From: Clostridia bacterium
GTDB lineage: Bacteria > Bacillota > Clostridia > Oscillospirales > CAG-272
Reading direction: 5' to 3'
Assembly: GCA_017387685.1 (NCBI GenBank)
Contig: JAFOEU010000055.1
Location: 89,989-153,988, forward strand
Length of the DNA stretch: 64,000 nucleotides
Below are positions 1,057 to 49,473 of the stretch, piece after piece. Position 1 is the stretch's first letter; each line of letters opens with the position of its first letter. The notes under the pieces are model-generated. The model was not told the DNA's origin. It saw nothing but the letters and a program-made list of their open reading frames with translations, and did not search any database. The translations under genes were made by a program, and so were the position numbers.

Positions 1057-1098
1057 AAAACAACAAAACTCACCGCTTTGGCGGTGAGTTTTGTTGTT
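1057..1098 (+). terminator. intrinsic terminator of the PFOR gene
   Basis: An 18-bp stem AAAACAACAAAACTCACCGC / GCGGTGAGTTTTGTTGTT with loop TTTG, 6 nt after the stop codon. Confidence 0.8.
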
Positions 1099-1314
1099 AG
1101 TTGCTAGTTGCTAGTTACTAGTTGCTGGTTGAAGGTGAATTTCCGAGCCGACGGCTCGGAAATTTTTGATTTTATCAAAAACAGCGGAAAAGTTTTTGAG
1201 GTTTCTTAAGGAACTTTTTTCAAAAAGTTCCTTAAGTCGAGCTCCGCAGAGCTCGAAACTCCCTTTTGCGCTTCGAAGCGACGGCGCCCCGCCGGCGTTT
1301 CGGAAGGAGTAAAA
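1094..1314 (+). repeat. composite modular repeat: 6x TTGCTAG-type heptamers, AAGGTGAATTT junction hairpin, palindrome CTTAAGGAACTTTTTTCAAAAAGTTCCTTAAG, CCGCAG-loop hairpin and a conserved tail
   Basis: Heptamers lie at 1094-1135 and the junction hairpin at 1131-1167. The downstream modules recur in reverse orientation at 19198-19289, 25515-25656, 29104-29225 and 49300-49392. Confidence 0.85.
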
Positions 1315-4105: not shown

Positions 4106-5272
4106 ATGAAGAATATCAAGTTAATGAATAAAATCGCCGCTTGCGGTACCGATATTTTTGACCGCGCGGTATATAACGTCGCTGACGACTGTGCGGCGCC
4201 CGAGGCGATAATGGTTCGCTCCGCCGCGCTTCACGATATGGAATTCAACCCCGAGCTTCTCGCGATCGCGCGTTGCGGTGCGGGTGTCAACAATATTCCG
4301 ATCGACCGCTGCACCGAGGCGGGAGTTGTAGTTTTCAACACCCCCGGCGCGAATGCGAACGGCGTTAAGGAGCTCGTTATCTGCGCGCTGATGCTTGCAT
4401 CGCGTGACGTTATCGGCGGCGCAAATTGGTCCGAAACGCTTACAACCGACGTTGCAAAGACGGTAGAGAAGGGCAAATCCGCTTTCGCAGGCTGTGAGCT
4501 TCGCGGTAAGACTCTCGGAGTTATCGGTCTCGGCGCGATCGGAGCAATGGTCGCAAACGCCGCGATCGACCTTGGTATGAAGGTTATCGGCTACGACCCC
4601 TACCTGACCGTTGACGGAGCGTGGAGAATTTCCCGTGCGGTAGGCCACGCGGTCACAACCGACGAAATTTTTGAAAAGAGCGATTATATCACCCTCCACG
4701 TTCCCGCTGTTGAGGCAACGAAGGGTATGATCCGCAAGGAAAATATTGATAAGATGAAGGATGGCGTCAAGATCATCAACCTTGCGCGCGCGGATCTCGC
4801 GATCGCGGCTGATATCAAGGACGCAATCGCGGCGGGCAAGATCTCGGCGTACGTCACCGACTTCCCGACCGAGGAAACCCTCGGTGTCAAGGGCATCGTT
4901 AATATCCCCCACCTTGGTGCATCCACGGGTGAGAGCGAGGATAACTGCGCGATCATGGCGGCAAATCAGCTCGTTGAGTTCCTTTCCACGGGTAATATCA
5001 AGAATTCCGTCAACTTCCCCGCGATCGATCTTCCTCCCCACGACGGCAGAAACGTCCTTGTCCTCCACGCAAACGTACCCGCGACCATCGCAAAGATCAC
5101 GACCGCCGTTGCGGAAAAGGGCGTCAACATCGAGCACCTTTCCAATAAATCCCGCGGCAACAACGCTTGCACACTCCTTGCCCTCGCCGTCGGCACCACC
5201 GACGCAGAGATCGCCGAAATGAAGAAGGCTATCGAAGCAAACGCAGGCATCTGGAGAGTAGTCGTTATTTAA
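4106..5272 (+). CDS. serA: D-3-phosphoglycerate dehydrogenase with a C-terminal ACT-like domain
   Basis: 2-hydroxyacid dehydrogenase NAD site GVIGLGAIGAMVA. The protein is 388 aa and the gene lies directly downstream of serC. Confidence 0.88.
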   Translation: MKNIKLMNKIAACGTDIFDRAVYNVADDCAAPEAIMVRSAALHDMEFNPELLAIARCGAGVNNIPIDRCTEAGVVVFNTPGANANGVKELVICALMLASRDVIGGANWSETLTTDVAKTVEKGKSAFAGCELRGKTLGVIGLGAIGAMVANAAIDLGMKVIGYDPYLTVDGAWRISRAVGHAVTTDEIFEKSDYITLHVPAVEATKGMIRKENIDKMKDGVKIINLARADLAIAADIKDAIAAGKISAYVTDFPTEETLGVKGIVNIPHLGASTGESEDNCAIMAANQLVEFLSTGNIKNSVNFPAIDLPPHDGRNVLVLHANVPATIAKITTAVAEKGVNIEHLSNKSRGNNACTLLALAVGTTDAEIAEMKKAIEANAGIWRVVVI

Positions 5273-5575
5273 GTGCAGAGTTAAGAGTGCAGAGTGCAGA
5301 GTTGAGGTGGATTTTCAAGCTCCGCTTGAAAATCATTGGTGCTTTAATTTTGTGCGGTGCTGATGCAATTTACTGCTGTGCTGAAATACAGAGAATAAAA
5401 TAAAAATCTCGGATATTTCGAAGCTTCGCTTCGGATATCCGAGATTTTTTAATTTGTTATGACTTTGGCTATGTGAAATTTAATCAGCACATCACAAAAT
5501 TATTAATATGGAATTTTCGCCACGGCGAAAATTTCCCTTCAACTCTGCACTCTGCACTCTTAACTCTGCACTTGA
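5273..5575. repeat. complete foldback element filling the serA / lipoprotein convergent spacer
   Basis: 5273-5305 is the exact reverse complement of 5539-5571 (33 bp of GTGCAGA-type heptamers). Junction hairpins lie at 5310-5335 and 5511-5535. A nested inverted repeat surrounds the central terminator. Confidence 0.9.
5402..5450. terminator. bidirectional intrinsic terminator
   Basis: AAAAATCTCGGATATTTCGAAGC-TTCG-CTTCGGATATCCGAGATTTTTT, with an A-run and a T-run flanking a long stem. Confidence 0.85.
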
Positions 5576-8607: not shown

Positions 8608-10263
8608 ATGAAAAAATATACCGTTGGAATAGATTTCGGAACGCTTTCGGGCAGAGCTGTGCTCGTTGACGTTATGACGGGCGAGGAGTGCGCAAGCGTC
8701 GTGATGGACTACCCTCACGCCGTCATCGACAGCATCCTTCCCGCGAGCGGTGAGGTGCTCCCGATCAATTGGGCACTCGAAGACCCGCGCGATTATCTCG
8801 CAGTTCTCGAATTTCTTTTCCCCGCGCTCTGCCGCGAGGCGGGCATCGAAAAGGAGCAGATCGTCGGTGTCGGCATCGACTTCACCTGCTGTACGATCCT
8901 TCCGATCAAAAAAGACGGCACCGCGCTCGTTTCTCTGCCCGAGTTTGAGCAGAATAAGCACGCCTACGTCAAGCTCTGGAAGCATCACGCCTCCCAGCCG
9001 TGGGCGGACCGTATGAACGAGGTTGCCGCAGAGCGAGGCGAGACCTTCGTCAATTATTTTGGCGGTAAGATATCGAGCGAATGGCTCTTCCCGAAGCTTC
9101 TCCAAACCGCAAAGGAAGCCCCCGAGGTCATAGAGGCGGCTGATTACTATATCGAGGCGGGAGATTGGCTCAATTTCTTGCTCACCGGCGTGCAGAAGCG
9201 CGGATATCTTTTCGCGTCCTACAAGGCGGAGTATCTGCCGGACGTCGGATACCCCTCCGACGAATATCTCGCGGCGGTCGATCCCGAGCTACCCGAGCTC
9301 GCGCACCGTCTGCTTGACGCCCCCATCGCGCAGATGGGCGAGTGCGTCGGTCGCGTTACCAAAGAGGCGGCTGAAAGATTCGGTCTTGCCGAGGGTACTG
9401 CCGTTGCCGCGTCGATCCCCGATGCCCACGTTGCCGCCCCCGCTGTTGGACTGACCAAGCCCGGCGATATTTACGGCATTTTCGGCACTTCCAATTGCTA
9501 TTTTACACTTGCTGATATTTACAGAGATATTGGCGGAATCTGCGGATACGTTCCCGACGGTCTTATGCCGGGTTACTTCGGCGTTGAAGCGGGACTTTGC
9601 GCCGTAGGCGACCATTTTGCGTGGGTTGTGGACAATCTTGCAACCGCAGAGGACAAGGCGGAAGCCGAGCAGCTCGGAATTCCCGTCATTCAGCTCCTCG
9701 TCCGCCGCGCGGCAAAGAAAAAGCCGGGCGAAACCGGACTTCTCGCCCTCGACTGGTGGAACGGAAACCGAAACATCCTCGTTGACGGCAATCTGACGGG
9801 ACTTTTGATCGGTATGACGCTCCGCACCAAGACCGATGATATCCTCCGCGCCCTTATTGAGGCGACCGCGTTTGCGACCAAGGTCATCATCGACCGTATG
9901 GAGGAATGCGGAATGAAGATCGACAGCCTCATCGCCGCGGGCGGAATCGCGCGCAAGGACGCATTTACGATGCAGGTCTACTCCGACGTCCTCGGCATCC
10001 CGATCAATGTAATTTCCTCAAAACAGGCTCCCGCACTCGGCAGTGCTATCTACGCCGCCGTTGCCGCAGGCGAATACCCCGACATTTTTGCCGCCTCCGA
10101 CGCTATGAAGAGCCCGATCTACAGCAGTTATACCCCCAATAAAGAGAACGAAAAGGTCTACTCCGCACTCTACCGCGAATACCTCACCCTTCACGACTAT
10201 TTCGGTCGCGGCGGGAACGACGTTATGAAGCGTTTGCTTAAGATCTCGCAGGGGGAGATTTAA
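8608..10263 (+). CDS. araB: FGGY-family sugar kinase, most likely L-ribulokinase
   Basis: The N-terminus GIDFGTLSGRAVLV and the 551-aa length match ribulokinases as I remember them. Confidence 0.75.
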   Translation: MKKYTVGIDFGTLSGRAVLVDVMTGEECASVVMDYPHAVIDSILPASGEVLPINWALEDPRDYLAVLEFLFPALCREAGIEKEQIVGVGIDFTCCTILPIKKDGTALVSLPEFEQNKHAYVKLWKHHASQPWADRMNEVAAERGETFVNYFGGKISSEWLFPKLLQTAKEAPEVIEAADYYIEAGDWLNFLLTGVQKRGYLFASYKAEYLPDVGYPSDEYLAAVDPELPELAHRLLDAPIAQMGECVGRVTKEAAERFGLAEGTAVAASIPDAHVAAPAVGLTKPGDIYGIFGTSNCYFTLADIYRDIGGICGYVPDGLMPGYFGVEAGLCAVGDHFAWVVDNLATAEDKAEAEQLGIPVIQLLVRRAAKKKPGETGLLALDWWNGNRNILVDGNLTGLLIGMTLRTKTDDILRALIEATAFATKVIIDRMEECGMKIDSLIAAGGIARKDAFTMQVYSDVLGIPINVISSKQAPALGSAIYAAVAAGEYPDIFAASDAMKSPIYSSYTPNKENEKVYSALYREYLTLHDYFGRGGNDVMKRLLKISQGEI

Positions 10264-10325
10264 GTGGCTAGTGACTAGTGGCTAGTGACTAGTGAAGGTG
10301 AATTTTCGCCAAAGGCGAAAATTTT
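10264..10325 (+). repeat. repeat arm: GTGGCTA/GTGACTA heptamers + AAGGTGAATTTTCGCC-AAA-GGCGAAAATTTT
   Basis: The arm starts on the nucleotide after the araB stop. It has five heptamers and then the junction hairpin. Confidence 0.85.
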
Positions 10326-10422
10326 CCGAATTAATTAATATACAAGTGCGAACATAGGCGCACTTGTATAGTACGAGTTACTATTTAACAAACGCATACA
10401 CCACCTTTCAAGGAGGATCATA

Positions 10423-10782
10423 ATGAAAAAACTCCCCCGCGAATCGGGCGTCGTGGTCGCTTGCGATTACAAAAAGATGCTTGCAATTCTGGATCATATC
10501 TTTTTCGATATATTTGACTCCAACGACAATTGCCTCGCCGCACTTTTGGGTGCTTGGTCACTCGACGTTATGTCCGACGGTGCGCCCGCCGATCTCGGTG
10601 ACTATGAAATCTGGCTCGAGTGCGAGTCGGAAAACAAGGATGCAGACGTCCGCACAAAAACTCTCGCCTTCCTCAACCGTTTCATTGAAACCTTCGGCTT
10701 CGATGAACTCAACAGCACCGTCGAAGAAGTGAAAAAACTCCCCGACACTCAAATCAAAATCCTGACCGAAAATATCAAATAA
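10423..10782 (+). CDS. hypothetical acidic 119-aa protein
   Basis: Strong RBS AAGGAGG. I recognise no motif. The gene is bracketed by two repeat arms. Confidence 0.55.
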   Translation: MKKLPRESGVVVACDYKKMLAILDHIFFDIFDSNDNCLAALLGAWSLDVMSDGAPADLGDYEIWLECESENKDADVRTKTLAFLNRFIETFGFDELNSTVEEVKKLPDTQIKILTENIK

Positions 10783-10786
10783 AATA

Positions 10787-10861
10787 CTTTTCGCCCACGG
10801 CGAAAAGTTACCATACCTTTTCCCTTTTCCCTTTTCCCTTTAACCTTTCCCCTCTTTCCCC
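10787..10861 (-). repeat. repeat arm (reverse orientation): hairpin CTTTTCGCC-CAC-GGCGAAAAG + GTTACC + CCTTTTC heptamers
   Basis: Heptamers occupy 10816-10861. The arm ends 10 nt before the ATG at 10872. Confidence 0.8.
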
Positions 10862-10871
10862 ATTTCAAACA

Positions 10872-11939
10872 ATGAACACCCTCAAAAAATACCTAAAGCG
10901 CTACTTCATCACCGCCATGTCCGCTATGGCGCAGGGACTTTTTGCCTCGCTTCTGATCGGAACGATTTTTAAAGCGCTCGGAATGATACCGCATCTCGGC
11001 GTGCTTGCCGATATCGGTGCATTTGCGCAGGCTGTCGCGGGTCCCGCGATGGCGGCGGCTATTGCTTTCGCGCTGAAATGTGATCCCCTTGTCATATTCT
11101 CTGCGGCGGCTGTCGGTTATGCCGCAAACGCGCAGGGCGGCGCGGGCGGTCCGCTTGCCGTGTTCTTCATCGCGATCATCGCGGTTGAGCTCGGTCAGCT
11201 CGTTTCAAAAAAGACAAAAGTCGATATCATCGTCACGCCCTTTGTGACGCTCCTCGTCGGCGGACTGCTTTCCGTGTTCGTCGCGCCCTCGATCGGCACG
11301 CTTGTCGGCTACGTCAGCACCTTCATCGGATGGGCGGCGACTCAGGCACCCTTCTTCACGGGACTTGCGGTTTCCGTCGTTATGGGAATCGCGCTGACAC
11401 TCCCGATTTCGTCTGCCGCAATCTGCGCGGGACTTGTCCTGACGGGTAGCATCGTTGCAGTAGGCTCGTCCGAGGGACTCGCAATCGCCGGCGGCGCGGC
11501 TGTTGCCGGATGCTGTGCGCAGATGGTGGGCTTTGCCGTCATCTCCTACCGCGACAACGGCGTCGGCGGTCTGCTCTCTCAGGGCATCGGCACAAGTATG
11601 CTCCAGATGCCTAATATAATAAGGAAGCCAATTATCTGGCTGCCCCCCATCATCGCCTCGGCGGTGACGGGACCGCTCGCGACCTGCACCTTCTCTATGA
11701 AAATGTACGGCGCGGCGATCAACTCGGGAATGGGCACTTGCGGTCTGCTCGGTCCTGTCGGTATCGTCCTCGGTTGGCTCGATCCCGCAAACGGATATCC
11801 GAGCGAGGTCGGAGCACTCGACTGGATAGGTCTTGCGCTCATCTGCTTCATTCTCCCCGCAGCTATTTCATACATTGTGTACATTCCGATGCGCCGTTTC
11901 GGTCTGATCAAGGACGGCGATATGAAGCTCGATAAATAA
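10872..11939 (+). CDS. PTS EIIC-domain membrane protein (PfoR / COG3641-like)
   Basis: A polytopic, Gly/Ala-rich 355-aa protein. The MGTSMLQMPNI region resembles the PfoR-type EIIC family from memory. There is no clear SD, and the start is preceded by the repeat arm. Confidence 0.55.
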   Translation: MNTLKKYLKRYFITAMSAMAQGLFASLLIGTIFKALGMIPHLGVLADIGAFAQAVAGPAMAAAIAFALKCDPLVIFSAAAVGYAANAQGGAGGPLAVFFIAIIAVELGQLVSKKTKVDIIVTPFVTLLVGGLLSVFVAPSIGTLVGYVSTFIGWAATQAPFFTGLAVSVVMGIALTLPISSAAICAGLVLTGSIVAVGSSEGLAIAGGAAVAGCCAQMVGFAVISYRDNGVGGLLSQGIGTSMLQMPNIIRKPIIWLPPIIASAVTGPLATCTFSMKMYGAAINSGMGTCGLLGPVGIVLGWLDPANGYPSEVGALDWIGLALICFILPAAISYIVYIPMRRFGLIKDGDMKLDK

Positions 11940-12734: not shown

Positions 12735-13583
12735 ATGCATATTAATATCAATATCGGTACAAGTGAAAAGGATTTCAACACCGAAAAGAAGAAAAAGCTC
12801 ACACCCGAGCAGAAGACGAAGATCAAAAATGCGGTAAAATCGGGTTATGGAAAGCTCCGCGTTGCCGCGGGCAGACTTTATTCGACCGTTGAGGACAAGG
12901 TCTTTGACGGCAGATGCTTCCTCTCCGAGCTGAAAGAGGGGATCCTTGAAGACGTTGCTGCCGTCCGTGAGCGAGACCCCGCGGCGAGAAGCGACATTGA
13001 GGTCATGCTTCTCTATTCGGGCGTTCACGCGATGCTCGCATACCGCGTGGCGCATAAGCTTTACGTCAATGAAAAATTTCTCCCCGCGAGAGCGGTTTCA
13101 CAGCTTGCGCGATTCCTGACGGGAATTGAGATCCACCCCGGCGCGCAGATCGGTAAGCGACTTATGATCGACCACGGCTCGGGCGTCGTAATCGGCGAGA
13201 CCTGCATCATCGGCGACGATTGCACGATCTATCAGGGCGTAACCCTCGGCGGTACGGGTAAGGACACGGGCAAGCGACACCCCACACTCGGCAATAATGT
13301 AATGGTCGGCTCGGGCGCAAAGGTCCTCGGACCGTTCAAGATCGGCGACGGCGCGAAGATCGCGGCGGGCGCGGTGGTACTCAAAGAGATCCCCGCGGGC
13401 GCGACTGCAGTCGGCATCCCCGCGAAGGTAGTGCGCCGCAAGGGCGAACGCGTTGAGGAACAGCTCGACCAGATCCACATCCCCGACCCCGTATCGCAGC
13501 AACTCGGAGAGCTTGAGGCGAAGATAGCTGAACTTAAGAGCGAGATCGAGGAGCTCAAGAAGGGCGAGGAAAGTGCAGAGTGA
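12735..13583 (+). CDS. cysE: serine O-acetyltransferase with N- and C-terminal extensions
   Basis: RERDPAARS and hexapeptide repeats (IHPGAQIGKRLMIDHGSGVVIGETCIIGDDCTIYQGVTLGG). The RBS is AAGGAG. The last codons and the stop lie inside the heptamer repeat. Confidence 0.88.
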   Translation: MHININIGTSEKDFNTEKKKKLTPEQKTKIKNAVKSGYGKLRVAAGRLYSTVEDKVFDGRCFLSELKEGILEDVAAVRERDPAARSDIEVMLLYSGVHAMLAYRVAHKLYVNEKFLPARAVSQLARFLTGIEIHPGAQIGKRLMIDHGSGVVIGETCIIGDDCTIYQGVTLGGTGKDTGKRHPTLGNNVMVGSGAKVLGPFKIGDGAKIAAGAVVLKEIPAGATAVGIPAKVVRRKGERVEEQLDQIHIPDPVSQQLGELEAKIAELKSEIEELKKGEESAE

Positions 13584-13741
13584 AGAGTGCAGAATGCAGA
13601 GTTAAGGAGAATTTCCTTGCCTGCGGCTGCGGAAATTTTCAATTCTGATATAAACTCAACTCAAACTTTATAATAAAATTATTTTTCGCTTCAGCGAAAA
13701 ATTACCGTAACTCTGCACTCTGCACTCTGCATTCTGCACTG
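13573..13741. repeat. complete foldback element (GTGCAGA arms) between cysE and the GDPD gene
   Basis: Left heptamers lie at 13573-13607 with a hairpin to 13640. The right hairpin is at 13681-13703 and CTCTGCA heptamers at 13711-13741. Confidence 0.85.
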
Positions 13742-13807
13742 TTATGCTCAACAAAATCAAGAAAAACAAATTAAAATACAAAATACATCCGAAAGGAAAC
13801 AAAGAAA

Positions 13808-19197: not shown

Positions 19198-19317
19198 TGG
19201 AGAGTTTCGCGCTCTGCGGAGGTCGACTTAAGGATATTCAAAAGCTTTCCCTCTGCTGTTGTCTTTTATTTGAATGAAAATTCACATTACCTCTGCCCTC
19301 TAACCTCTGCCCTTCTC
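19198..19317 (-). repeat. composite repeat (reverse orientation) ending in CCTCTGC heptamers that overlap the stop codon at 19316-19318
   Basis: GGAGAGTTTCG-GCGCTCTGCGGAGG-CGACTTAAGG...CTGCTGTTGTCTTTTATTTGAATGAAAATT, then CCTCTGC CCTCTAA CCTCTGC CCTTCTC. The junction hairpin is deleted in this copy. Confidence 0.75.
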
Positions 19318-20188
19318 AAAGGCTTGTTTTCGAAACGAGGTGCTTTGCTCTCTTTACCATAAATTCTACCGCGGTGGGGAAGAATTCGTTGTCGAATCCC
19401 TTGAGGAAGGCGTCAGCCTCGTAGGTGAATTCGCCGTCGTACTTGATATCCTCGAATGCCTTCATAATGTTATCCCAGTTCATCAGACCGAGTCCGGGGA
19501 TGGTGTGGCGGTCGCCCTGATAATCGTTATCGTGGAGGTGGACCGACTTGAGTCTGTCGTGACCGAGGATGCGGATGGTGTCCTCTGCCTCCTCGCCGAC
19601 GAGCGAGCAATGTCCGACGTCGAGGCAGGCAACTACCCACTCGCTGTCGATCGCGTCGATGAGCGCGGCGTGATCCTTCGCGAATCCCGCAACGTCGGTG
19701 CAGATGCACTTACGCTTGATTTCCTTCTGCCACATATTCTCAAGCGCGATCTTTACGCCGAGATTGCGTGCAAGCGGAACGAGCGACTTGTAATACTGAA
19801 TATTCAGCTCATTGATCTCATCCTCGTGACCGAGATAGGGCATCCAGTGGAGGGGATGAACGACCGCGATCTTAACGCCCATCATCGCGCTGATCTCAAG
19901 CGACTGCTCGACGCGGGGCTTCGCGATATTTTCGCGGATGTTTTCGTCTGCCCAAGCAAAGGAGAAGGGCGCGTGCGACTGATTGAAGATGATTCCGTTT
20001 GCATCGCAAAAAGCCTTTCGCTCTTCAACGAGCTTTCTCCAATCGCCTGCAATATAGGGGCTGTCATCGCGGATCATCTCGAAGAGGGAGAGATCGAGGC
20101 AATCGTAGCCCGCGTTTTTAAGGGTGAGGACTCCCTGTTCGAATCCAAGTCTGCCAACCGAATGACCGGTCTGTGTTGAAATAAGCAT
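19316..20188 (-). CDS. sugar phosphate isomerase/epimerase (xylose isomerase-like TIM barrel)
   Basis: A 290-aa protein with a family-typical pattern (HAPF...VVHP...ALEN...DVGH...HLHDN). Confidence 0.75.
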   Translation of the reverse strand: MLISTQTGHSVGRLGFEQGVLTLKNAGYDCLDLSLFEMIRDDSPYIAGDWRKLVEERKAFCDANGIIFNQSHAPFSFAWADENIRENIAKPRVEQSLEISAMMGVKIAVVHPLHWMPYLGHEDEINELNIQYYKSLVPLARNLGVKIALENMWQKEIKRKCICTDVAGFAKDHAALIDAIDSEWVVACLDVGHCSLVGEEAEDTIRILGHDRLKSVHLHDNDYQGDRHTIPGLGLMNWDNIMKAFEDIKYDGEFTYEADAFLKGFDNEFFPTAVEFMVKRAKHLVSKTSL

Positions 20189-23025: not shown

Positions 23026-23150
23026 TCGGCTTCGCCGAGTGATAATCTCGCTTCGCGAGAGTGATAATCCGCCTGCGGCGGAGTGATAATTTCCGCTGCG
23101 CGGAAAATAAAGGTGAATTTTCTCGCCTTCGGCTCAAAAATTATTAAATT
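23026..23150 (+). repeat. repeat arm: 3x AGTGATAAT + mini-hairpin units, then AATAAAGGTGAATTTT and a degenerate hairpin
   Basis: TCGGCTTCGCCGA GTGATAAT CTCGCTTCGCGAG AGTGATAAT CCGCCTGCGGCGG AGTGATAAT TTCCGCTGCGCGGAA. Confidence 0.8.
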
Positions 23151-25514: not shown

Positions 25515-25738
25515 ACTCCTTCCGAACAGCCGCCGGGGCGGCGTCTGTTCGAAGCGCGGAGGGAGTTTCGCCGTCTGCGGACGGCGACTTAAGGCTCTGC
25601 CTTAAGAAACCGCAAGTTTTTGAAAAAACTTGACTAAAACTTTCCCGCTATCTTTATTTCGCCGCAGGCGAATTATCACTCTCGCGAAGCGAGATTATAA
25701 CTCTGCCGTAGGCAGATTATCACTCGCGCTCTGCGCGA
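25515..25738 (-). repeat. composite repeat (reverse orientation) ending in ATTATCACT + mini-hairpin units
   Basis: ACTCCTTCCGAA...TTCGAAGCGC..GGGAGTTTCG-CCGTCTGCGGACGG-CGACTTAAGG...AAAACTTTCCCGCT, then the array at 25657-25738. The mazF ORF ends inside the array. Confidence 0.8.
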
Positions 25739-26156
25739 CAACCCCCGCCTCCGCCACAGCCGCAGGCTGTACCTCCACTCCCTCCCCATACGCTCCTGCG
25801 GGAGGCAGCACTATACCAAAGCTCACCGCGATCGCGTTGTTGACTCTATCCATCATCTCATCGTCGAGGTGTCCCATCCGCTCGCGCAGGCGGCGTTTGT
25901 CGAGCGTTCTGATCTGCTCGAGCAGTATCACCGAATCCCTCGCCAGTCCCGCGCGCTCGGCGTATATGTCGATATGTGTGGGCAGGCGCGTTTTGCTCAT
26001 TCGCGATGTAATTGCCGCCGCTATCACGGTCGGACTGTATTTATTCCCAACGTCGTTTTGTATTATCAGCACGGGCCGAAGTCCGCCCTGCTCCGAGCCG
26101 ACGACGGGCGAAAGATCTGCATAATATATATCCCCTCTGCGTATCTGCGAGTTCAT
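25695..26156 (-). CDS. mazF: MazF/EndoA-type endoribonuclease toxin with a ~35-aa C-terminal extension
   Basis: [44 protein letters not shown]...LPTHIDI...[17 protein letters not shown] is very close to B. subtilis EndoA as I remember it. The tail [37 protein letters not shown] has no counterpart there. Confidence 0.85.
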
Positions 26157-26339
26157 TTTCTTTCTCTTCCTTTCCTTGGTCTATCACTATTCTTGACCGC
26201 ATACGCATGTTTCAAACACCGAAGAAAGCTTTCGCTCTTGGAAATTTTTCCTCATTGTCATTATATGTCGGAAGAAAAGATATTGACTTTGAGATCGGAT
26301 GGTGATATAATTATAAAAAACTCACTCGGAGGTTCTGCT

Positions 26340-27149
26340 ATGAATTACTGGACACAATCAAAGGATAATATATACGTTGCCGCTCATCGCGGATGGAGCA
26401 CCGTTTACCCCGAAAATACTCTCCTCGCATTTAAAAAGGCTATCGAGATCGGTGTTGACCAGATCGAGACCGACGTTCGCATCACCCGCGACGGCGAGCT
26501 TGTCTGCATCCACGATGCCGCCGTCGACCGCACCACAAACGGCACGGGTAAGGTCTGCGACAAGACTCTCGCCGAGCTCAAAACTCTCGACGCAGGCTCT
26601 TGGAAGGGCGCGGAATTCGCGGGCGAGCGCATCCCCACCTTCATCGAGTTTATGGAGCTCGTCAAGGATCATCCCACGATGACCCTCGATATTGAGCTTA
26701 AGGAATACCCCGTTGACGGACGTGACGAGATCGCATACGAGGTCTGCGACCGCGTGCTTAAGATCATAGATGATTACGGCTTTACCGACCGCGTGGTCAT
26801 CAACACCTTCAACGGCAAGCTCCACGAATATATGGAAGAGAAGTACGGCTCGAAATACCGCCGCCACATCTACTACCCCCTCACCCACATGGGCAAGGTC
26901 AAGCGCGACCCCTACACCTCCTCGGCGTACTGCTGCTGTATGTTCCGCGCACTTTACAGCCCGATCAATATGGCGACAAAGGAGGAATTCGACCGTATGA
27001 TCGCTCTCGGAGTCCGTCCTTGGGCACCCGCGGGAGTCAAGACTCAGGAGCACGTTGACGAGGTCATCGCCTGCGGCGGCGAGCTTATCACTTGCAATAA
27101 TCCCGATGAGATCCTTGCATTTTTGAGAAACAGAGGAAAGCATAATTAA
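26340..27149 (+). CDS. glycerophosphodiester phosphodiesterase (second copy)
   Basis: ORF 25869..27149 is trimmed to the ATG at 26340, which has a GGAGG RBS and the promoter TTGACT-17-TATAAT (about 26284-26312). Contains the motifs AAHRGWSTVYPENT and ETDVRITRDGELVCIHD. Confidence 0.85.
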   Translation: MNYWTQSKDNIYVAAHRGWSTVYPENTLLAFKKAIEIGVDQIETDVRITRDGELVCIHDAAVDRTTNGTGKVCDKTLAELKTLDAGSWKGAEFAGERIPTFIEFMELVKDHPTMTLDIELKEYPVDGRDEIAYEVCDRVLKIIDDYGFTDRVVINTFNGKLHEYMEEKYGSKYRRHIYYPLTHMGKVKRDPYTSSAYCCCMFRALYSPINMATKEEFDRMIALGVRPWAPAGVKTQEHVDEVIACGGELITCNNPDEILAFLRNRGKHN

Positions 27150-27208
27150 GTGCAGAGTTCAGAGTGCAGAATGCAGAGTTAAGGTAAATTTTCGCGTTGC
27201 GAAAATTA
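27150..27208 (+). repeat. repeat arm: GTGCAGA heptamers + TTAAGGTAAATTTTCGC-GTT-GCGAAAATT
   Basis: The arm starts on the nucleotide after the stop codon. The AATTTTGTGCGGTGCTGAT module also seen at 5350 follows it. Confidence 0.85.
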
Positions 27209-27275
27209 TTTCTGCGATAATTTTGTGCGGTGCTGATAAGATTTTGTGCTGAATTGAAATTGGAAGAGTAAATTG

Positions 27276-27323
27276 AAAAACTCGGATATTTTGAAGCTGG
27301 GCTTCTCGATATCCGAGTTTCTT
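27276..27323. terminator. bidirectional terminator
   Basis: AAAAACTCGGATATTTTGAAGC...CTCGATATCCGAGTTTCTT. It has the same CTCGGATAT stem as the terminators at 5402 and 45224. Confidence 0.75.
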
Positions 27324-27329
27324 ATTTAT

Positions 27330-29090
27330 TTAGGGAAGGACTATCATAAGTCCGTTCGCGACTGCACGGAGTGAGCCGGCGGAGGGGCTGTTTTCGGTTA
27401 CGAGCTCTCCCTTTTCGTTTTTGAGGATGAAGGTACTCGATCCGCCGCCGTCGAGGTTGATCGCGTTGACGCAATCGAGGGTGGACATGATGTACGCGAG
27501 GTCGGCGAGAGACGCGCCGTTCGAGATCTCGGGCTGTCTGCCGTCAACGACGATGAGCACGATCGTTCCGTCCGAGGTCACGCCCGCCGCGGTACGGGGA
27601 TGGCGGGTGTCGGAGAATTCTGTTCCGATCGAGAGGTTGTCAGTGCCGCCGTTTTTGAGGATTATGTGCGAGCCGCCGACAGCGGTGAAGAGCTTGTCCT
27701 TATAGTTCGCGTATTCGGCAGAAGTACCCATAACGGCGTTGCCGTCGTTTGTGATTCCGAACCAGGGGCGTTCACCGGTGCCGCTGATAAACACGCCGTC
27801 CTTGATGCAAAGACCGCGCATCACATTCGTTCCGCCCATATCGAAGAAGTCGGCGTTGACTCCCGCGATAACGTTTTTGCCGTTCGAGATCGCGGAGGTG
27901 AGCTGTTTCTTCATATTTGCAACTGTACCCTTCTTGTCCGCGCTGTCGGAGGGCATCGTGGTCAGGATAGTCGCCGCGCCCGGCTTTATGCTGATAGCAT
28001 AAGCGCGAACGTTTGCGGAATTTTTATCGGTATAAACGATCTCGGTGTAGATGACGCCGGGTGCGACCTCGACCGAGGTTCTTGTTGCCTCGCGGAGCTT
28101 ATTCGTTCCGTTTGGAACGTGGAGTCCCGAGAGGTTTCGGCTGCCTGAAAGCTCGATCTTATATTCGCCCGAAACGCCTGTGGGCATATATTCATAGAGG
28201 AATCTTTGCGCGCCTGCCGCGCCTGCAGAATCGCCCTTGAAGTCGATAAAGATATTACCGTCCGCTTCTGTGATAAAATAGCGGTTTGTAGCGAAATACT
28301 TCTGATCGCCGTGGCTTCCGTCGGGCTTGCCACAGCCGTAGAATATCGCGGGACCGCCCTTATAGTTCGCAATCGGAACGGTTTTGAGGTTGACTCCGCA
28401 GACCTTGCTGATGCCCTGAATGATCAGATCGATATTCTTGCCGTTCTTTGTTGCATCGACGATCGAGTATTCGGAGATCTCGCGCTCGCCGAGCTGGAGG
28501 GAGGTTATCGGATAGCCATTTGTATAAAGCTGATTTTGACCTGCCTTGAGCTCTGCCGCCGTGCCCTCAGACGTGACCTTGCCGTTCTTGTCCTCGGTGT
28601 AGCCGAAGATATCCTTGAGGAAGTTTTCAACTGCGGTAACGGTCGATTCGGGCGAGCCGCCGCAGATGACGATCACGTTTTCGCTGACGATCTTATAGGT
28701 CCAATCGTAGTATGTAAGCGACTCGCGTGCCGCAACGGAATCGGCGCGGTTGGTTGCACCGACAAGTATTTCGTATTCGTTCGGAACGACCTCGGCACCC
28801 TTTTTGGTGAAGTCGGTCGTCATCGGGAGCTTGAAGCCCATCGCGCTTTCAAGACCGCGAGAGAGGAGCTGTATTGCCGCCACCTCGCTTGAATCCGAAT
28901 CGTCGGGTCGGACGAGTTTATAATCCGCCGTCAGGGAAAATGAGGGAGATTCGGTTTCGGGAGCGTCGGTGATAGCTTCGGTTATCTGTTCTGTTGTGAT
29001 CTCACCTTCGCCGCCCGTGCAGGATACAGCACCGAGCAGGATGCAGGCGAGCATAATAAGAGAAAGTAATCTCAAAAATTTATTTTTCAT
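27330..29090 (-). CDS. lipoprotein with a C-terminal phosphodiester glycosidase (NAGPA/DUF2233-like) domain
   Basis: Lipobox LLGAVSC. The C-terminal region GVNADFFDMGG...RTAAGVTSDGTIVLIVVDGRQ...NLDGGGSSTF is present. Confidence 0.7.
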   Translation of the reverse strand: MKNKFLRLLSLIMLACILLGAVSCTGGEGEITTEQITEAITDAPETESPSFSLTADYKLVRPDDSDSSEVAAIQLLSRGLESAMGFKLPMTTDFTKKGAEVVPNEYEILVGATNRADSVAARESLTYYDWTYKIVSENVIVICGGSPESTVTAVENFLKDIFGYTEDKNGKVTSEGTAAELKAGQNQLYTNGYPITSLQLGEREISEYSIVDATKNGKNIDLIIQGISKVCGVNLKTVPIANYKGGPAIFYGCGKPDGSHGDQKYFATNRYFITEADGNIFIDFKGDSAGAAGAQRFLYEYMPTGVSGEYKIELSGSRNLSGLHVPNGTNKLREATRTSVEVAPGVIYTEIVYTDKNSANVRAYAISIKPGAATILTTMPSDSADKKGTVANMKKQLTSAISNGKNVIAGVNADFFDMGGTNVMRGLCIKDGVFISGTGERPWFGITNDGNAVMGTSAEYANYKDKLFTAVGGSHIILKNGGTDNLSIGTEFSDTRHPRTAAGVTSDGTIVLIVVDGRQPEISNGASLADLAYIMSTLDCVNAINLDGGGSSTFILKNEKGELVTENSPSAGSLRAVANGLMIVLP

Positions 29091-34430: not shown

Positions 34431-34645
34431 AGGGGATAATAGAGATAAGTTGCTCCCGAAGGGAGCAGTGATAATCTCGCTTCGCGAGAGTGATAATCCG
34501 CCTTTCGGCGGAGTGATAATTTGCCTGCGGCAAAGTAAAGGTAAATTTCCTCGCTTTGCTCGGAAATTATCGAATGATTTATTTACTTTCAGCGAAGCTG
34601 AAATTATCACTCTCGCGAAGCGAGATCATCACTGCCCCTCGGGCA
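34431..34645. repeat. foldback element with AGTGATAAT + mini-hairpin arms (about 4 left units, 2 right units)
   Basis: The left arm is 34431-34535. The junction hairpin AAGGTAAATTTCCTCGC-TTTG-CTCGGAAATT is at 34536-34568. The right arm TTTCAGCGAAGCTGAAATTATCACTCTCGCGAAGCGAGATCATCACT is at 34587-34645. Confidence 0.8.
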
Positions 34646-42548: not shown

Positions 42549-43058
42549 CGAGATCGGGTTAATCTCGCTTCGCTCGAGTTATAATCCGCCTTCGGCGGAG
42601 TGATAATCGCCTTGCGGCGAGTGATAATTTGCCTTCGGCAAAATGAAGGTAGATTTTCGCCGAGGCGAAAATCTTTGATTTAAATAATAAGCGATGTTAC
42701 AAATAAGCCTTCCCCGGCGGGGAAGGTGGCAGCCCTTGCGGCTGCCGGATGAGGGGATCGCCGTCTGTACCGCAGACACGACAAGCGTATATGCATTTTC
42801 ATATAATTGAAAATTTCCGCCTCGGCGGAAATTCACCTTTATTTTTCGCGCAGCGAAAATTATCATTCTCGCGAAGCGAGATTATCATTTTGCCGAAGGC
42901 AGATTATCACTCGCCGCAAGGCGATTATCACTCCGCCGAAGGCGGATTATCACTCGAGCAAAGCGAGATTATCACTCCGCCGAAGGCGGATTATCACTCG
43001 AGCGAAGCGAGATTATCACTCCGCCGAAGGCGGACCATCACTCGAGCGTCAGCGAGAT
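42549..43058. repeat. large foldback element inside the ABC transporter operon (3 left units, structured core, 9 right units)
   Basis: Left words start at 42577, 42599 and 42620, with the junction hairpin at 42645-42673. The right junction hairpin is at 42809-42841. Right words ATTATCAYT start at 42859, 42881, 42903, 42924, 42946, 42968, 42990, 43012 and 43034. Confidence 0.9.
42686..42790 (+). ncRNA. conserved structured motif, copy 1 (function and functional strand unknown)
   Basis: H1 is CCTTCCCC-GGC-GGGGAAGG (42708-42726). H2 is GGCAGCC-CTTGC-GGCTGCC (42728-42746). GGATGAGGGGATCGCC follows. H3 is GTCTG-TACCG-CAGAC (42763-42777). Confidence 0.4.
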
Positions 43059-46359: not shown

Positions 46360-46364
46360 TTAAA

Positions 46365-46432
46365 GTTACTAGTTGCTAGTTATTAGTTACTAGTTAAAGG
46401 TAAATTTCCGCCCCGATGGGGCGGAAATTTTT
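46365..46432 (+). repeat. repeat arm: GTTRCTA heptamers + TTAAAGGTAAATTTCCGCCCC-GAT-GGGGCGGAAATTTTT
   Basis: The arm begins 5 nt after the rbr stop. It matches the reverse-oriented arm at 48087-48153 at about 42 of 48 positions. Confidence 0.85.
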
Positions 46433-46439
46433 GATTTTA

Positions 46440-46469
46440 TTGACAATTACCTCTTTTTTATGGTATAAT
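46440..46469 (+). promoter_or_regulatory. sigma-A type promoter
   Basis: TTGACA, an 18-nt spacer, then TGG-TATAAT. Confidence 0.6.
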
Positions 46470-46505
46470 AAATATAACTATCCCCCATCCGAAAGGAAAA
46501 TTACG

Positions 46506-47012
46506 ATGTCTAAAATTAAAACTCTCTCGCTTTTCTTTGCTCTGACCTTGCTTCTCTGCGCTCTCGTTTCCTGCGCGGACGATCCTTACTACAAATTCGA
46601 CCGCAAGCTTGAACCCTTGACCGACGAGCAGATCGAGGAATGCAACTCGGCTTACAGAGAAGATTATTTCGGAGCTTACGACGAATATATTGCTTCCAAA
46701 TCCGAGGATATGCGCGAGCAGGCGGAAAAGGCATATTTCGGTATGAAATTCATTCAGAATAGCGTTTACAACCCCTATCTCGGCACCTTCAGCGGAGCGA
46801 TCGTCGTCGGCACTTCGATCCGCAACGAGAAAGAAACCTATATCATCGGCGTTACCGAATTTGAAATGGGCTCGCTGAAGAAGATCACCGTCTATAAGAA
46901 CGGTGAGTTTGTGTCGCTCTCGCAGGCATATAACAGCGGCTGGCTGACCGACGAGGATATCGCGGGCTTATCCGCAAGAATCGAAAAGTACGAAAAGGAA
47001 ATGAAAAAATGA
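46506..47012 (+). CDS. lipoprotein, unknown function
   Basis: Lipobox LLLCALVSC. Trimmed to the ATG at 46506. Confidence 0.65.
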   Translation: MSKIKTLSLFFALTLLLCALVSCADDPYYKFDRKLEPLTDEQIEECNSAYREDYFGAYDEYIASKSEDMREQAEKAYFGMKFIQNSVYNPYLGTFSGAIVVGTSIRNEKETYIIGVTEFEMGSLKKITVYKNGEFVSLSQAYNSGWLTDEDIAGLSARIEKYEKEMKK

Positions 47013-48088
47013 GATTCATATTCCCTCAAAACGGCGACTGCATAAATGCAAATGACGGCTTACCGCTCAAAGTACTCGTTGAAGCACCTGCCGATGGCGA
47101 TATTTACGTCGGCGGCGTGAAAGCCGAATTTTCGGACGGCGTGTGGAGTACAACCGTGCCGATTTCCGCATATAAAACCACTCTCACAGCCGAAAACAGA
47201 AAAAACGGCGATAACTGCGCCGTCACTCTGCTGAAATTTGCCGATCCCGTGGGCAAGTTCCGCCTCTCATCCGATGATAACATCCTCTTTTTGCAGGATA
47301 TTACGAAAAATCAGGATAAATACACCTCGATTTTCGATAACCCCTACCTCGCGCTTTACAAAAAAGCGCACGATCTCTACGGCGCGTGCATTCATCTCAA
47401 TCTGTTTTACGAATATATCCCCGACGAAAAATATTTCGCCGCCCATCCCGATTATTTCAATCTCTCGATGATGACGGACAAATTCAAGTCGGAATTCGAG
47501 GCGAATTCGGATTGGCTCAAGCTCGCATTCCACTCAAATGCCGAATTCCCCGATAAGCCGTATAAATTCGCGACCGCAGAGCAGATCACCGAGGATTTTC
47601 TCAAGATTCGCCGCGAGATCGTTCGCTTCGCGGGGGAGAGCTCGACGACGAACTCGACCACCGTTCATTTCGGTGCGGCGAACCGCGAGGTCGTCCGCGC
47701 ACTCCACGCCCTCGGTCTGCGCTCGCTGACGGGGTATTTCAGACGCAATGCAAAGGGCGAACCGAGCGTTTCCTACTATTTTGAGGACGAAAGGCTTGAA
47801 CATATCGGCTCGCGCGACTTCTGGTACGATGAGAGCGAGGATATGATCTTCGCGCAGATCGATCTTGTGCTCAATGAAAAGACCTACTCCGACGTGATGG
47901 AAGCCCTCCCGAGGATCGCGGACGATCCGCACCGCGGCGGTTTCATCTCGCTGATGATCCACGAGCAGTATTTCCACCCCGACTACCGCCGCCACCTCCC
48001 CGATTTCGAGGCACGCGTGCTTGATTCTTGTGCATTCTTGCATAAGAGGGGATACATTGGCGAGCATATATCAAATATTACAAAATAA
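47009..48088 (+). CDS. hypothetical 359-aa protein
   Basis: It overlaps the upstream gene by ATGA. I recognise no motif with confidence. Confidence 0.5.
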   Translation: MRFIFPQNGDCINANDGLPLKVLVEAPADGDIYVGGVKAEFSDGVWSTTVPISAYKTTLTAENRKNGDNCAVTLLKFADPVGKFRLSSDDNILFLQDITKNQDKYTSIFDNPYLALYKKAHDLYGACIHLNLFYEYIPDEKYFAAHPDYFNLSMMTDKFKSEFEANSDWLKLAFHSNAEFPDKPYKFATAEQITEDFLKIRREIVRFAGESSTTNSTTVHFGAANREVVRALHALGLRSLTGYFRRNAKGEPSVSYYFEDERLEHIGSRDFWYDESEDMIFAQIDLVLNEKTYSDVMEALPRIADDPHRGGFISLMIHEQYFHPDYRRHLPDFEARVLDSCAFLHKRGYIGEHISNITK

Positions 48089-48153
48089 AAAATCCGCTCG
48101 AAAATCGAGCGGATTTTTACCTTTAACCAGCAACTAACAACTAGCAACTAGCA
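48087..48153 (-). repeat. repeat arm (reverse orientation): hairpin/terminator AAAAAATCCGCTCG-AAAA-CGAGCGGATTTTT + ACCTTTAACC + AACTAGC-type heptamers
   Basis: The arm ends 7 nt before the stop of the minus-strand transporter gene. The hairpin also serves as terminator for the + gene ending at 48088. Confidence 0.85.
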
Positions 48154-48160
48154 ACTTTTA

Positions 48161-49150
48161 TCAGAACGCTCCTCCCATACGAAGCAGGAAGGTTACGAGG
48201 AACACGGTGAGTGCCGATGCGAGGGTGGACCAGACTACGAGCTGACCCGCAAGGGTGACGTCGCCGCCCATTTCCTGTACCATAGGTACGCTGGGAACTG
48301 CAACGGGGGTTGCGAATGCCGCAACGAGGGTTGCGAACTGCGCGGGAGTAAAGCGGTCGCGCAGGAAAATGAATGCAATGCCGAGGACGAGTGCGGGAAC
48401 GATAACGGTACGGGTGAGAGTACCGAAAATGATCTCCTTTTTGAGTGCCGCAACTGCGGAGAACTCAAACTGCGCGCCGAGAACGAGGAGTGCAAGCGGG
48501 ATCGCGAGGTCTGCGAGGTAATTGAGTACCTGGAAGAGCGGTCCGATGTTCGAGAGCTTGAAGGTGATTCCCGCAGGCTCGAATATAAATGTGCGTACCG
48601 CAACGCAAGCGAGTGCGGCAAAAATACCGATGATAAGAGGGTTCTTGATGATGTCAAGAACGATCTTGAGGGGCGAAACCTTTTCGCCGCTGTCGTTGCC
48701 GAGCGCGGAAAGGCTGATGACTGCGAGCACGTTGAAGCAGGGGATAAGCGCGGCGGAAAGAATGGTCGCCGCCATCATACCCTCGTCACCGTAAAGCGAG
48801 CCTGCAAGCGGAATACCGATCAGGGAGTAACCCGAGCGGAAGATCGCCTGAACGAGAACGCCGACGCGGTCCTTTTTGCCCGCGATGAGCAGACAAGCGG
48901 GGATGGAAAGTCCGAAAATAACGAAAAGCGCGATAAGACAGTAGCCGATGAAGCCGAAATCGACGTCCGAAAGCTTCATATCGTAGATCTTAACGAAGAG
49001 CATTACGGGCATGAACGCGCGGAAAACGAGCTTGTTTGCCTTCTTGGCAAAATCCTCATCCATCATGCCGATCTTTTTGAAGAAATAGCCGACAACAACG
49101 GCGAGAACGATGGGCGCAACTGCGGAAAGAGCGAAAATTAACGAATCCAT
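48161..49150 (-). CDS. AEC (auxin efflux carrier) family transporter
   Basis: A 329-aa polytopic protein. The N-terminus is MDSLIFALSAVAPIVLAVVVGYFFKK. Trimmed to the ATG at 49150. Confidence 0.75.
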   Translation of the reverse strand: MDSLIFALSAVAPIVLAVVVGYFFKKIGMMDEDFAKKANKLVFRAFMPVMLFVKIYDMKLSDVDFGFIGYCLIALFVIFGLSIPACLLIAGKKDRVGVLVQAIFRSGYSLIGIPLAGSLYGDEGMMAATILSAALIPCFNVLAVISLSALGNDSGEKVSPLKIVLDIIKNPLIIGIFAALACVAVRTFIFEPAGITFKLSNIGPLFQVLNYLADLAIPLALLVLGAQFEFSAVAALKKEIIFGTLTRTVIVPALVLGIAFIFLRDRFTPAQFATLVAAFATPVAVPSVPMVQEMGGDVTLAGQLVVWSTLASALTVFLVTFLLRMGGAF

Positions 49151-49299
49151 AGAATTTACCTTTCTTCCTATTTTATATAACCACAATATTTTACCACTTT
49201 TTCCCCCGCGCTTCAAGTACAAATATTGACGATTTTATACATTTTATGCTAATATTTTTGTGCCAAGTGCTGTTGCGCCGTCTGTGGTCGGCACGGGGT

Positions 49300-49455
49300 G
49301 ACAAGACAGAGTCGCAGCTTGCCGCAGGCAAGTGTGAACTTCTTGAAAAAGTTCGATCAAAACTTACCGCTGCTGTTGTCTTTTATTTGATTGAAAATTT
49401 CCGAGCAAAGCGAGGAAATTCTCCTTAACTCTGCACTCTGCATTCTGCACTCTGT
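49300..49455 (-). repeat. composite repeat (reverse orientation) ending in CTCTGCA heptamers
   Basis: CTTGCCGCAGGCAAG...GAACTTCTTGAAAAAGTTC...AAAACTTACCGCTGCTGTTGTCTTTTATTTGATTGAAAATTTCCGAGC-AAAG-CGAGGAAATTCTCCTTAA, followed by the heptamers. Confidence 0.8.
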
Positions 49456-49473
49456 ATTTTGCCTCCTCAAATA

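Follow-up and report, generated by a model that had tools for sequence, protein, structure and literature searches.

Long simple-sequence repeats (SSRs), heptamer tandem repeats among them, are said to be over-represented in bacterial genomes, a finding ascribed to Mrazek and colleagues in 2007, and the STRR heptamers of cyanobacteria are a related class of tandem heptamers. MITE-like elements (miniature inverted-repeat transposable elements, for example BOX, RUP, Correia and ERIC) are dispersed non-coding sequences of 100-300 bp with inverted ends; transcription places them at mRNA ends, and they can contain terminators. The HutP site of the Bacillus hut operon, a single locus with 3+3 sites, consists of period-7 NAG triplets separated by 4-nt spacers, next to or in a terminator hairpin after the stop. 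The present report concerns an array of the heptamer AGTGCAG at the 3' end of the gene cysE, together with the palindromic module to which it belongs, in a stretch of 64,000 nucleotides from a Clostridia bacterium (GenBank assembly GCA_017387685.1, contig JAFOEU010000055.1, positions 89,989 to 153,988; this whole stretch is called the window below). Tandem GGGAATC and GGGGA(C/T)T heptamers were described in intergenic regions of Xanthomonas and Nostoc, with no function identified; their G-rich strand lies on the coding strand, 0-50 nt from the stop codon or overlapping it, and they show a modal length of 4 units that was linked to G-quadruplex formation, as well as inverted pairs and length variation between relatives (Rehm et al. 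2015, PMC4692102). Arrays of TAACTGA, with 7-nt indels between strains, are found in Beggiatoaceae, cyanobacteria and Bacteroidetes; in the Guaymas 'Maribeggiatoa' genome they lie mostly just upstream of start codons, and one Flexibacter array directly follows a stop, in the AGTTATC orientation (MacGregor 2015, PMC4679880). Many REP (repetitive extragenic palindromic) elements lie within 15-20 nt of a stop codon and can affect translation of the upstream gene (PMC12306157; PMC2817692).

The cysE gene (12735..13583, plus strand) encodes a serine O-acetyltransferase of 282 amino acids, recognised by its Hexapep and SATase_N domains and by its homologues, and its final 12 nt lie within the repeat. 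The gene ends in ...GAG GAA AGT GCA GAG TGA. That the array supplies the last residues S-A-E and the TGA at 13581-13583, as the initial annotation had stated, can be read directly from units 1 and 2, AGTGCAG AGTGAAG, at 13572-13585; the TGA exists because unit 2 carries a C to A change. The outer, forward array as a whole reads AGTGCAG AGTGAAG AGTGCAG AATGCAG AGT (13572..13602, plus strand; period 7 and 4.4 copies according to Tandem Repeats Finder). It runs into the junction motif AGTTAAGG (13600..13607, plus strand), nearly invariant in every one of 18 distinct copies aligned, and then into hairpin A, GAGAATTTCC...GGAAATTTTC (13607..13640, plus strand), an inverted repeat with a predicted fold and with compensatory changes in 5 of its 9 stem pairs across the 18 copies. 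Behind it come an AT-rich interior with CTGATA-18-TATAAT (13645..13674, plus strand), promoter-like in its match to the consensus, and hairpin C, ATTTTTCGCT GAAG AGCGAAAAAT (13681..13702, minus strand), an inverted repeat that is terminator-like on the minus strand. The inner-facing array (13706..13743, minus strand; complement array at 13710-13740, again of 4.4 copies, in Tandem Repeats Finder) is the reverse complement of the forward array, and 65 nt separate its end from the start of the GDPD gene at 13808. This inverted copy had gone unremarked in the initial annotation; 13572-13740 is thus one palindromic module of 169 bp, with 43-nt inverted arms that are 84% complementary. Each arm comprises about four heptamers, AGTTAAGG and a covarying terminator-like hairpin. 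Folded as RNA, 13560-13750 forms a single long stem around hairpins A and C (-80.1 kcal/mol, z = -10.5 relative to shuffled sequences). The array at the end of cysE is the left arm of a palindromic terminator-like spacer module, and no stand-alone repeat. Rfam at gathering thresholds gave zero matches across the whole window.

The module family is present in many copies, both in the window and in metagenome-assembled genomes (MAGs) of other Eubacteriales, and AGTTAAGG with its covarying hairpin was found in 18-22 distinct copies. The window contains 12 heptamer arrays, 11 from a period-7 scan and a twelfth at 19283-19318. By unit type they are AGTGCAG (6), AGTTGCT/AGTTACT (3), AGTGRCT (1), GAAAAGG (1) and GAGGGCA/GAGGTTA (1). 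All 12 are intergenic or overlap the end of an open reading frame (ORF) by at most 12 nt. About one intergenic region in four has an array. Downstream of each of the 12, in the direction of the array itself, come (T)TAAGG and next a hairpin with the base AATTTYC...GRAAATT.

Arrays of this type abut stop codons far more often than chance would allow. In the window, 7 of the 12 start between -2 and +6 nt from the stop of the gene reading into them, or 8 of the 12 with cysE, at -11, included; if arrays were placed at random in intergenic bases, 0.4-0.8 of 12 would be expected there (57 genes, 7,681 intergenic nt; P about 3e-8 to 1.5e-7). The arrays reported to begin immediately after a stop at 5273, 10264 and 27150 do so: the stops of the 2-hydroxyacid dehydrogenase (SerA-like), FGGY kinase and 426-aa GDPD genes end at 5272, 10263 and 27149, and GTGCAG or GTGGCT comes directly next, although the final A of each TAA may just as well be counted as the opening base of AGTGCAG. 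The last CCTTCTC unit likewise overlaps a stop as described, the TGA of the xylose-isomerase-like gene (19316..20188, minus strand) lying within it.

The same relation holds across phyla. A scan for (AGTGCAG)x3, requiring three perfect units, in 185,579 species genomes gave at least 120 loci; here and in the metagenome collections the array counts are samples, taken among the matches listed, and genes were called as raw ORFs of at least 100 codons. The comparison of the 5' and 3' ends of the same arrays is a control independent of ORF accuracy. The phyla among the AGTGCAG matches listed include Eubacteriales/Clostridia, Gemmatimonadota, Acidobacteriota, Planctomycetota, Chloroflexota, Bacteroidota, Cyanobacteriota and others. 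Among these matches, the 5' end of the array lies between -2 and +6 nt from the stop of a long sense ORF in 39/119 cases and the 3' end stands in this relation to a convergent stop in 2/119 (Fisher P = 3e-11); further counts are 13/36 and 27/83 as against 0/36 and 2/83. Start codons show no enrichment at either end of the AGTGCAG arrays listed. The usual junctions, with a slash marking the edge of the array, are TA/AGTGCAG, TG/AGTGCAG and T/AGTGCAG, and such junctions occur in several phyla. An independent unit, (AGTTGCT)x3, gave 28/91 as against 8/91 at the other end among the matches listed from JGI metagenomes, a figure to be read with the caveat that the TAG inside this array makes ORF ends at -2, -9 and -16 partly automatic, and such ends are seen on both sides. 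The modal length is 4 units in Firmicutes (19/43), in other phyla (22/106) and in the AGTTGCT metagenome arrays (26/91), again among the matches listed. The sense strand has more G than C in 27 of the 31 stop-abutting arrays made of heptamers other than AGTGCAG. The earlier expectation that abutment would differ from random placement in intergenic DNA is strongly borne out, and the effect is specific to orientation, in the window statistics as in the cross-phylum AGTGCAG sample. AGTGCAG itself is a common heptamer and not a unique one: among the IMG/VR loci listed with three units, it accounts for 13 and the permuted controls AGTCGAG and AGGTGCA for 7 and 2, and the idea that it is uniquely special was rejected.

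Orthologous loci show arrays being gained, resized, exchanged and lost. Homologues of CysE with 80-98% identity are syntenic, and one further locus (L128, ENA ERZ28654171 scaffold_144) is identical to the window. A four-unit array ends cysE in the window and in three other loci, L001, L155 and L156 (CysE identity 88-100%); in these AGTGAAG, which holds the TGA, is always unit 2, and the AATGCAG variant is unit 3 in some and unit 4 in others. Unit 2 is invariant in L001, L155, L156 and also L157 (91%), where the whole interior of the module has been deleted from arm to arm and the arms are fused (AGTGCAGAGTGCACTGTTAC, 1490-1560) with N-A-E-TGA kept, a palindrome-mediated collapse after which the end of cysE is still encoded by the array. 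In L130-132 (96%) the array is down to AGTGCAGAGTAA, about 1.5 units, and S-A-E and the stop are kept. In L124 (87%) the boundary GAGGAA(GAA)/AGT is as in the window, with units AGTTTAT AGTTGAT giving ...E-S-L-TAG. The array is absent from L002 (92%), where the tail is KQEKSEG before the stop and a histidine-phosphatase gene occupies the gap, and from L125-127 (80-84%), which end in KNKK, KNKN or KNN with the next gene 19-22 nt later.

Other sites vary in the same way, with the protein ends intact. Between the stop of SerA and the TTGAAGG junction, which are the same in each case, the window has 5 units, L124 has 2 and L127 has 0; in L127 one shared hairpin lies between the convergent genes. 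The SerA C-terminus ...WRV(V/I)VI is found in all three, and the FGGY kinase ends in ...SQGEI with or without an array. The suggestion that arrays replace native 3' ends is not supported as a rule, since the SerA (...WRVVVI) and FGGY (...SQGEI) ends are the same in relatives with 0, 2 or 5 units. The comparison of C-termini with orthologues called for at the outset gives a divided answer: the CysE tail is array-encoded and differs by lineage, and the SerA and FGGY (AraB) ends are unchanged. The hairpin ahead of the PTS-EIIC gene is conserved, but the array beside it differs: its unit is CCTTTTC both in the window and in L002 and ACTCTGC in L001, and L124 has a stub of two ACTC[AT]GC units; unit numbers at this site among relatives are 2, 4 and 6. 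The array at the PTS site of L001 is identical over 36 nt to the one at its own cysE-GDPD site. Arrays are therefore resized in place in 7-nt steps, exchanged between copies, collapsed by arm-to-arm deletion and lost, and the coding end has been remodelled only at cysE. This Eubacteriales series (0, 2, 4 and 5 units, swapped unit types, collapsed modules) makes the mutational process directly testable.

Targeted insertion at stops, the other mechanism proposed in the initial annotation, finds no support here. No direct repeat indicating a target-site duplication was seen by eye at the flanks of 13572/13740, of 5272/5572 or of the copies in other loci; no transposase or integrase was among 25 of the 49 Pfam families listed for the 56 window ORFs, nor was Y1_Tnp (RAYT) in this subset, the window being 64 kb of the genome; and no autonomous insertion sequence (IS) with the same ends is present in the 64 kb. 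At an orthologous site the stop and the junction motif are the same but enclose only 2 units, which points to arrays growing where they stand. Integron attC sites were considered and rejected, as the GTTAAGG/GTTGAGG junction has G where the GTTRRRY core needs Y, and no integrase is among 25 of the 49 Pfam families listed for the window.

The account that we favour, with about even confidence, is that 13572-13740 is a REP/MITE-like multi-copy palindromic terminator module whose outermost part is a heptamer SSR between the stop and the first hairpin. Heptamers of the form A-G-K-N4, here AGTGCAG, would fill the short transcribed but untranslated spacer between stop and hairpin, and the G-rich, largely unstructured array would act as a spacer or as a stem extension before the hairpin. 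The module as a whole is a putative bidirectional terminator or insulator of transcription that separates cysE from the GDPD gene; the two genes lie only 19-22 nt apart in relatives that lack it. Copying across the palindrome may keep the arms of the module complementary, or may have made them so. The array's outer edge would be pinned where selection on the protein begins, and an edge pinned in this manner would end up on the stop codon; the evidence for selection at the edge is that unit 2 is invariant while AATGCAG moves, and that the SerA and FGGY C-termini are unchanged. At cysE the edge lies 12 nt inside the ORF, and selection would preserve the TGA created by the change in unit 2 wherever a lineage has the array, so that the overlap is probably a tolerated by-product and no device for stopping translation.

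Several observations weigh against this account. The sense-strand bias (39/119 against 2/119, among the matches listed) and the cross-phylum mode of 4 units look like constraint and less like neutral slippage. The four lineages with CysE identity of 88-100% have exactly 4 units at cysE, with no hypervariability there. That the array is always a spacer before a hairpin is true of every window copy; in phyla other than Firmicutes, a significantly stable fold lies within the next 60 nt after only about 21% of AGTGCAG arrays, as against 4-6% for ORF controls, and the general form of the proposal was rejected: the spacer-before-terminator picture is lineage-specific. No target-site duplication was seen by eye, and no transposase was found among 25 of the 49 window Pfam families. 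Strict sense orientation, the 4-unit mode and the constancy at cysE are left over, and they keep rival explanations alive.

One such explanation, possible though unlikely in our judgement, takes the array as a cis-element of the 3' untranslated region, in which A-G(-U) every 7 nt, in about 4 copies before the terminator hairpin, is read by an oligomeric RNA-binding protein that tunes termination, read-through or mRNA decay. HutP recognises NAG triplets with 4-nt spacers beside a terminator, and cold-shock proteins cover about 7 nt each; the arrays have a HutP-like pattern of CAG or UAG every 7 nt, 4-5 times, ending at the hairpin. The unit types of this lineage (AGTGCAG, AGTTGCT, AGTGRCT, AGTTKAT, AGTGGTC, AGGGCAG/AGGTTAG and AGGGAAA) share A-G-K at one phase and vary at positions 4-7, which agrees with periodic recognition, as do the strict sense orientation, the constant length at cysE and the 4-unit mode in Firmicutes, other phyla and metagenomes among the matches listed. 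Arrays of the AGTGCAG type are, moreover, largely unstructured when folded by themselves. S1, Csp or CsrA were proposed as readers of the TAACTGA repeats (MacGregor 2015, PMC4679880). Here, however, no candidate protein was found: a HutP-family protein is not among 25 of the 49 Pfam families listed for the window, which covers 64 kb of the genome, and the taxonomic range of HutP itself is narrow. Arrays are lost (L002, L130, L125-127) or cut to 2 units (L124) with no visible compensation, about half of the window arrays point away from any gene end, and AG occurs, in our own reading, in only about two-thirds of the stop-abutting units listed across phyla.

Position and orientation may instead be mutational in origin, an explanation we find doubtful and rate below the cis-element. 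Ribosome-free G-rich RNA past the stop would form R-loops, expose the non-template strand and drive 7-nt slippage from the stop onward; in a version based on selection, C-rich arrays would be removed because they load Rho, and G-rich ones tolerated. These parts follow the generally known roles of R-loops and Rho. The excess of G over C on the sense strand of the 27 of 31 arrays mentioned above, the strict sense orientation and the coincidence of the array edge with the end of translation all fit, as does the finding that the G-rich strand is the coding strand beside stops in the other heptamers (Rehm et al. 2015, PMC4692102). The inner-facing arrays upstream of genes (10811, 13706 and 49424) nevertheless have the C-rich strand in the sense direction, and identical arrays at different loci of L001 show copying and no independent local expansion.

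The initial annotation had favoured a third idea, that arrays are inserted or selected at gene 3' ends as fail-safe stops in all frames against read-through or frameshifting, replacing native ends; we hold this to be very unlikely. The claim of frame-independent stops is right for part of the arrays. Those of AGTTGCT, AGTTACT and AGTGRCT close all three frames within 20 nt, or within about 30 nt when the array at 19283-19318 is taken with them; the stop of cysE does come from the array; T/AGTGCAG, TG/AGTGCAG and TA/AGTGCAG junctions recur in several phyla; and 15 of the 91 long ORFs that run into AGTTGCT arrays in the JGI metagenomes, among the matches listed, end on T/AG of the first unit. 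For the AGTGCAG family the idea is contradicted. Pure AGTGCAG, the commonest unit in the window, has no stop in any of the six frames and encodes the heptapeptide SAECRVQ in all three forward frames; the six AGTGCAG-type window arrays close 0-2 of 3 frames, and AGGGAAA is likewise open in every frame. In units that contain a stop, ORF ends at -2, -9 and -16 are automatic and occur on both sides of the array, and the native C-termini of SerA and FGGY are unchanged. Frame-independent stops cannot be the common function and are true of some unit types only. Finally, it is extremely improbable that faulty assembly, faulty ORF calling or mere chance produced the cysE overlap, for although relatives have some contigs that are broken within or close to an array (L129), the same module and cysE end occur in the independent assemblies L001, L128, L129, L155 and L156, Pfam-supported genes lie on both sides, and the abutment statistics, in the window and across phyla, speak against chance.

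The stop bias had already been reported for other heptamers (Rehm et al. 2015, PMC4692102). That units unable to form G-quadruplexes share this bias and the 4-unit mode undercuts the sole structural explanation offered so far. As the bias is seen in two unrelated units and in many phyla and habitats, its explanation must be general, involving the ribosome, RNA polymerase, Rho or replication. One might speculate that arrays of about 4 heptamers in sense orientation at stops are a phylum-spanning, G-quadruplex-independent cis-signal at the handover from translation to termination, for example a periodic binding platform or a zone resisting R-loops or Rho, with the Eubacteriales module as one lineage's elaboration; we regard this too as unlikely. 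For annotation, it is of practical importance that the final residues of a protein and its stop codon can come from such an array, and that these arrays break short-read assemblies.

The remaining copies in the window differ in size and completeness. One of them, 301 bp long (5272..5572), lies between the convergent SerA-like gene and a gene of 525 aa, with arms that abut both stops; it folds with -156.9 kcal/mol (z = -17.2), and its arms of about 34 nt are, judged by eye, identical inverted copies with a variant AGTTAAG unit at the matching position. A truncated copy (27149..27330, plus strand) begins at the last base of the GDPD stop and comprises a forward array, hairpin A, the conserved interior and a central terminator hairpin, without the inner-facing arm. 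Both belong to a composite of about 300 bp whose parts occur in the same order in four Eubacteriales MAG loci (L049, L012, L029 and L057): array, junction, hairpin A, ATAATTTTGTGCGGTGCTGAT, a strong central terminator hairpin, hairpin C, junction and array. Inverted doublets are found at 13572/13706 and 5272/5539 and as pairs in L012, L024, L029 and L049. Two larger arrangements enclose ORFs. At 10263..10860 a forward array (AGTGRCT) and hairpin are followed by an ORF of 119 aa (10423..10782) and by a hairpin and inner-facing array of another unit (CCTTTTC); at 46364..48160 a forward array (AGTTACT/AGTTGCT) and hairpin are followed by two unannotatable ORFs and by a hairpin and inner-facing array (AGTTGCT) that abuts the stop of the gene at 48161..49222 on the minus strand. 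Single arrays are an AGTTGCT array with a terminator-like hairpin (1093..1165, plus strand), which lies beyond another terminator 40 nt past a stop; the GAGGGCA/GAGGTTA-type array (19283..19318, minus strand), which overlaps the TGA of the xylose-isomerase-like gene; and an AGTGCAG array with a predicted hairpin (49390..49458, minus strand) in a divergent intergenic region, with no stop adjacent. A simple intrinsic-terminator pattern is matched by the hairpins at 1137-1165 (plus strand), 10808-10786 (minus strand) and 13702-13681 (minus strand) and by the core of the central hairpin of the 5272 module (5430-5443, plus strand); hairpin A at 13607-13640 is unmatched. A requirement for matching units in paired arms was rejected, as the 10263/10811 and L126 pairs have unlike units, and so was a bias for one replication strand, as six window arrays lie in each orientation.

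None of the ORFs between array-plus-hairpin arms (10423-10782, 46416-47012 and 47009-48088) is matched in Pfam, NCBIfam or PADLOC. Relatives differ in the genes that lie between FGGY, cysE and GDPD, where PTS-EIIC, histidine phosphatase and ORFs of 235-300 aa come and go, and the array-flanked gaps thus coincide with sites of gene gain and loss. At 10811-10874 the PTS-EIIC gene of the window starts 12 nt past the CCTTTTC array and lacks a Shine-Dalgarno sequence; in L001 (1062-1118) it has GGAG and an ACTCTGC array instead. A gene without a Shine-Dalgarno sequence after a repeat recalls the repeat-preceded genes of this kind described for TAACTGA. Non-coding segments with GCTGCTGTTGTCTTTTATTTGA... 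are common to the flanks of two arrays (19250-19290 and 49375-49400), and GC-rich palindromic pieces resembling GCCGTCTGCGGACGGC lie nearby, at 19200-19240, 25550-25600 and 49270-49330; both may be further parts of composite intergenic elements. In two Clostridia MAGs, L085 (5166-5746, minus strand) and L073 (6474, minus strand), AGTGCAG arrays recur every 87-96 nt or so, each after ...CCCGCGCTTGA. They may sit inside a repetitive coding region, where AGTGCAG could be tolerable because the pure unit is open in all six frames.

The window also contains a second repeat family, unrelated to the heptamers. It consists of tandem units of 22-23 nt, each a short GC hairpin with a loop of 3-4 nt (for example CCGCC-GAAG-GCGG and CTCGC-GAAG-CGAG) and a conserved linker ATTATCACT(C). 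Its arrays lie in both orientations, contain as many as about 10 units and have no Rfam match at gathering thresholds. Its sites are 23029-23104, 25668-25729, 34467-34520, 42560-42639, 42847-43058, 52444-52532 and 52988-53143. The mazF frame had been said to end inside an array; the PemK/MazF toxin ORF (25695-26156, minus strand; 153 aa) does end in a repeat, but in one of this 22-nt-period family, at 25668-25729, into which its last 40 or so codons run, and the Pfam domain stops at residue 113. A long ORF with a GTG start, 25869..27149 (GDPD), overlaps the toxin ORF, so the true GDPD start is probably further downstream.

Comparison with known systems places these arrays as follows. Like heptameric long SSRs, they are head-to-tail 7-nt units in intergenic DNA whose copy number differs in 7-nt steps among relatives. 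The G-richer coding strand next to the stop, the preference for 4 units, the inverted pairs and the length variation of the Xanthomonas and Nostoc heptamers are all present. Unlike those heptamers, AGTGCAG, AGTTGCT and AGTGRCT have no run of two or more G and cannot form a G-quadruplex, the arrays are tied to a conserved module of AGTTAAGG plus hairpin, and the host is a Firmicute. With the TAACTGA repeats they share intergenic arrays of 2-6 or more units, indels in 7-nt steps and a patchy phylogenetic distribution, and TAACTGA, when read on the opposite strand (AGTTATC in rotation), conforms to the AGT-N4 pattern; no hairpin module was described for those arrays (MacGregor 2015, PMC4679880). 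Like the REP, BIME and REPIN elements of E. coli and Pseudomonas, the modules are multi-copy extragenic palindromes with a hairpin, a short conserved flanking motif and inverted doublets, whereas REPs have no tandem heptamer arms and their sequences are unrelated. Their ends, unlike those of MITEs, are SSRs of variable length instead of fixed terminal inverted repeats, with no target-site duplication seen at the flanks inspected and no matching IS found in the window. The case at cysE thus shares the defining features of the heptamer SSR class, departs from it in the G-quadruplex feature, and adds to it a junction-plus-hairpin module in a Firmicute lineage.

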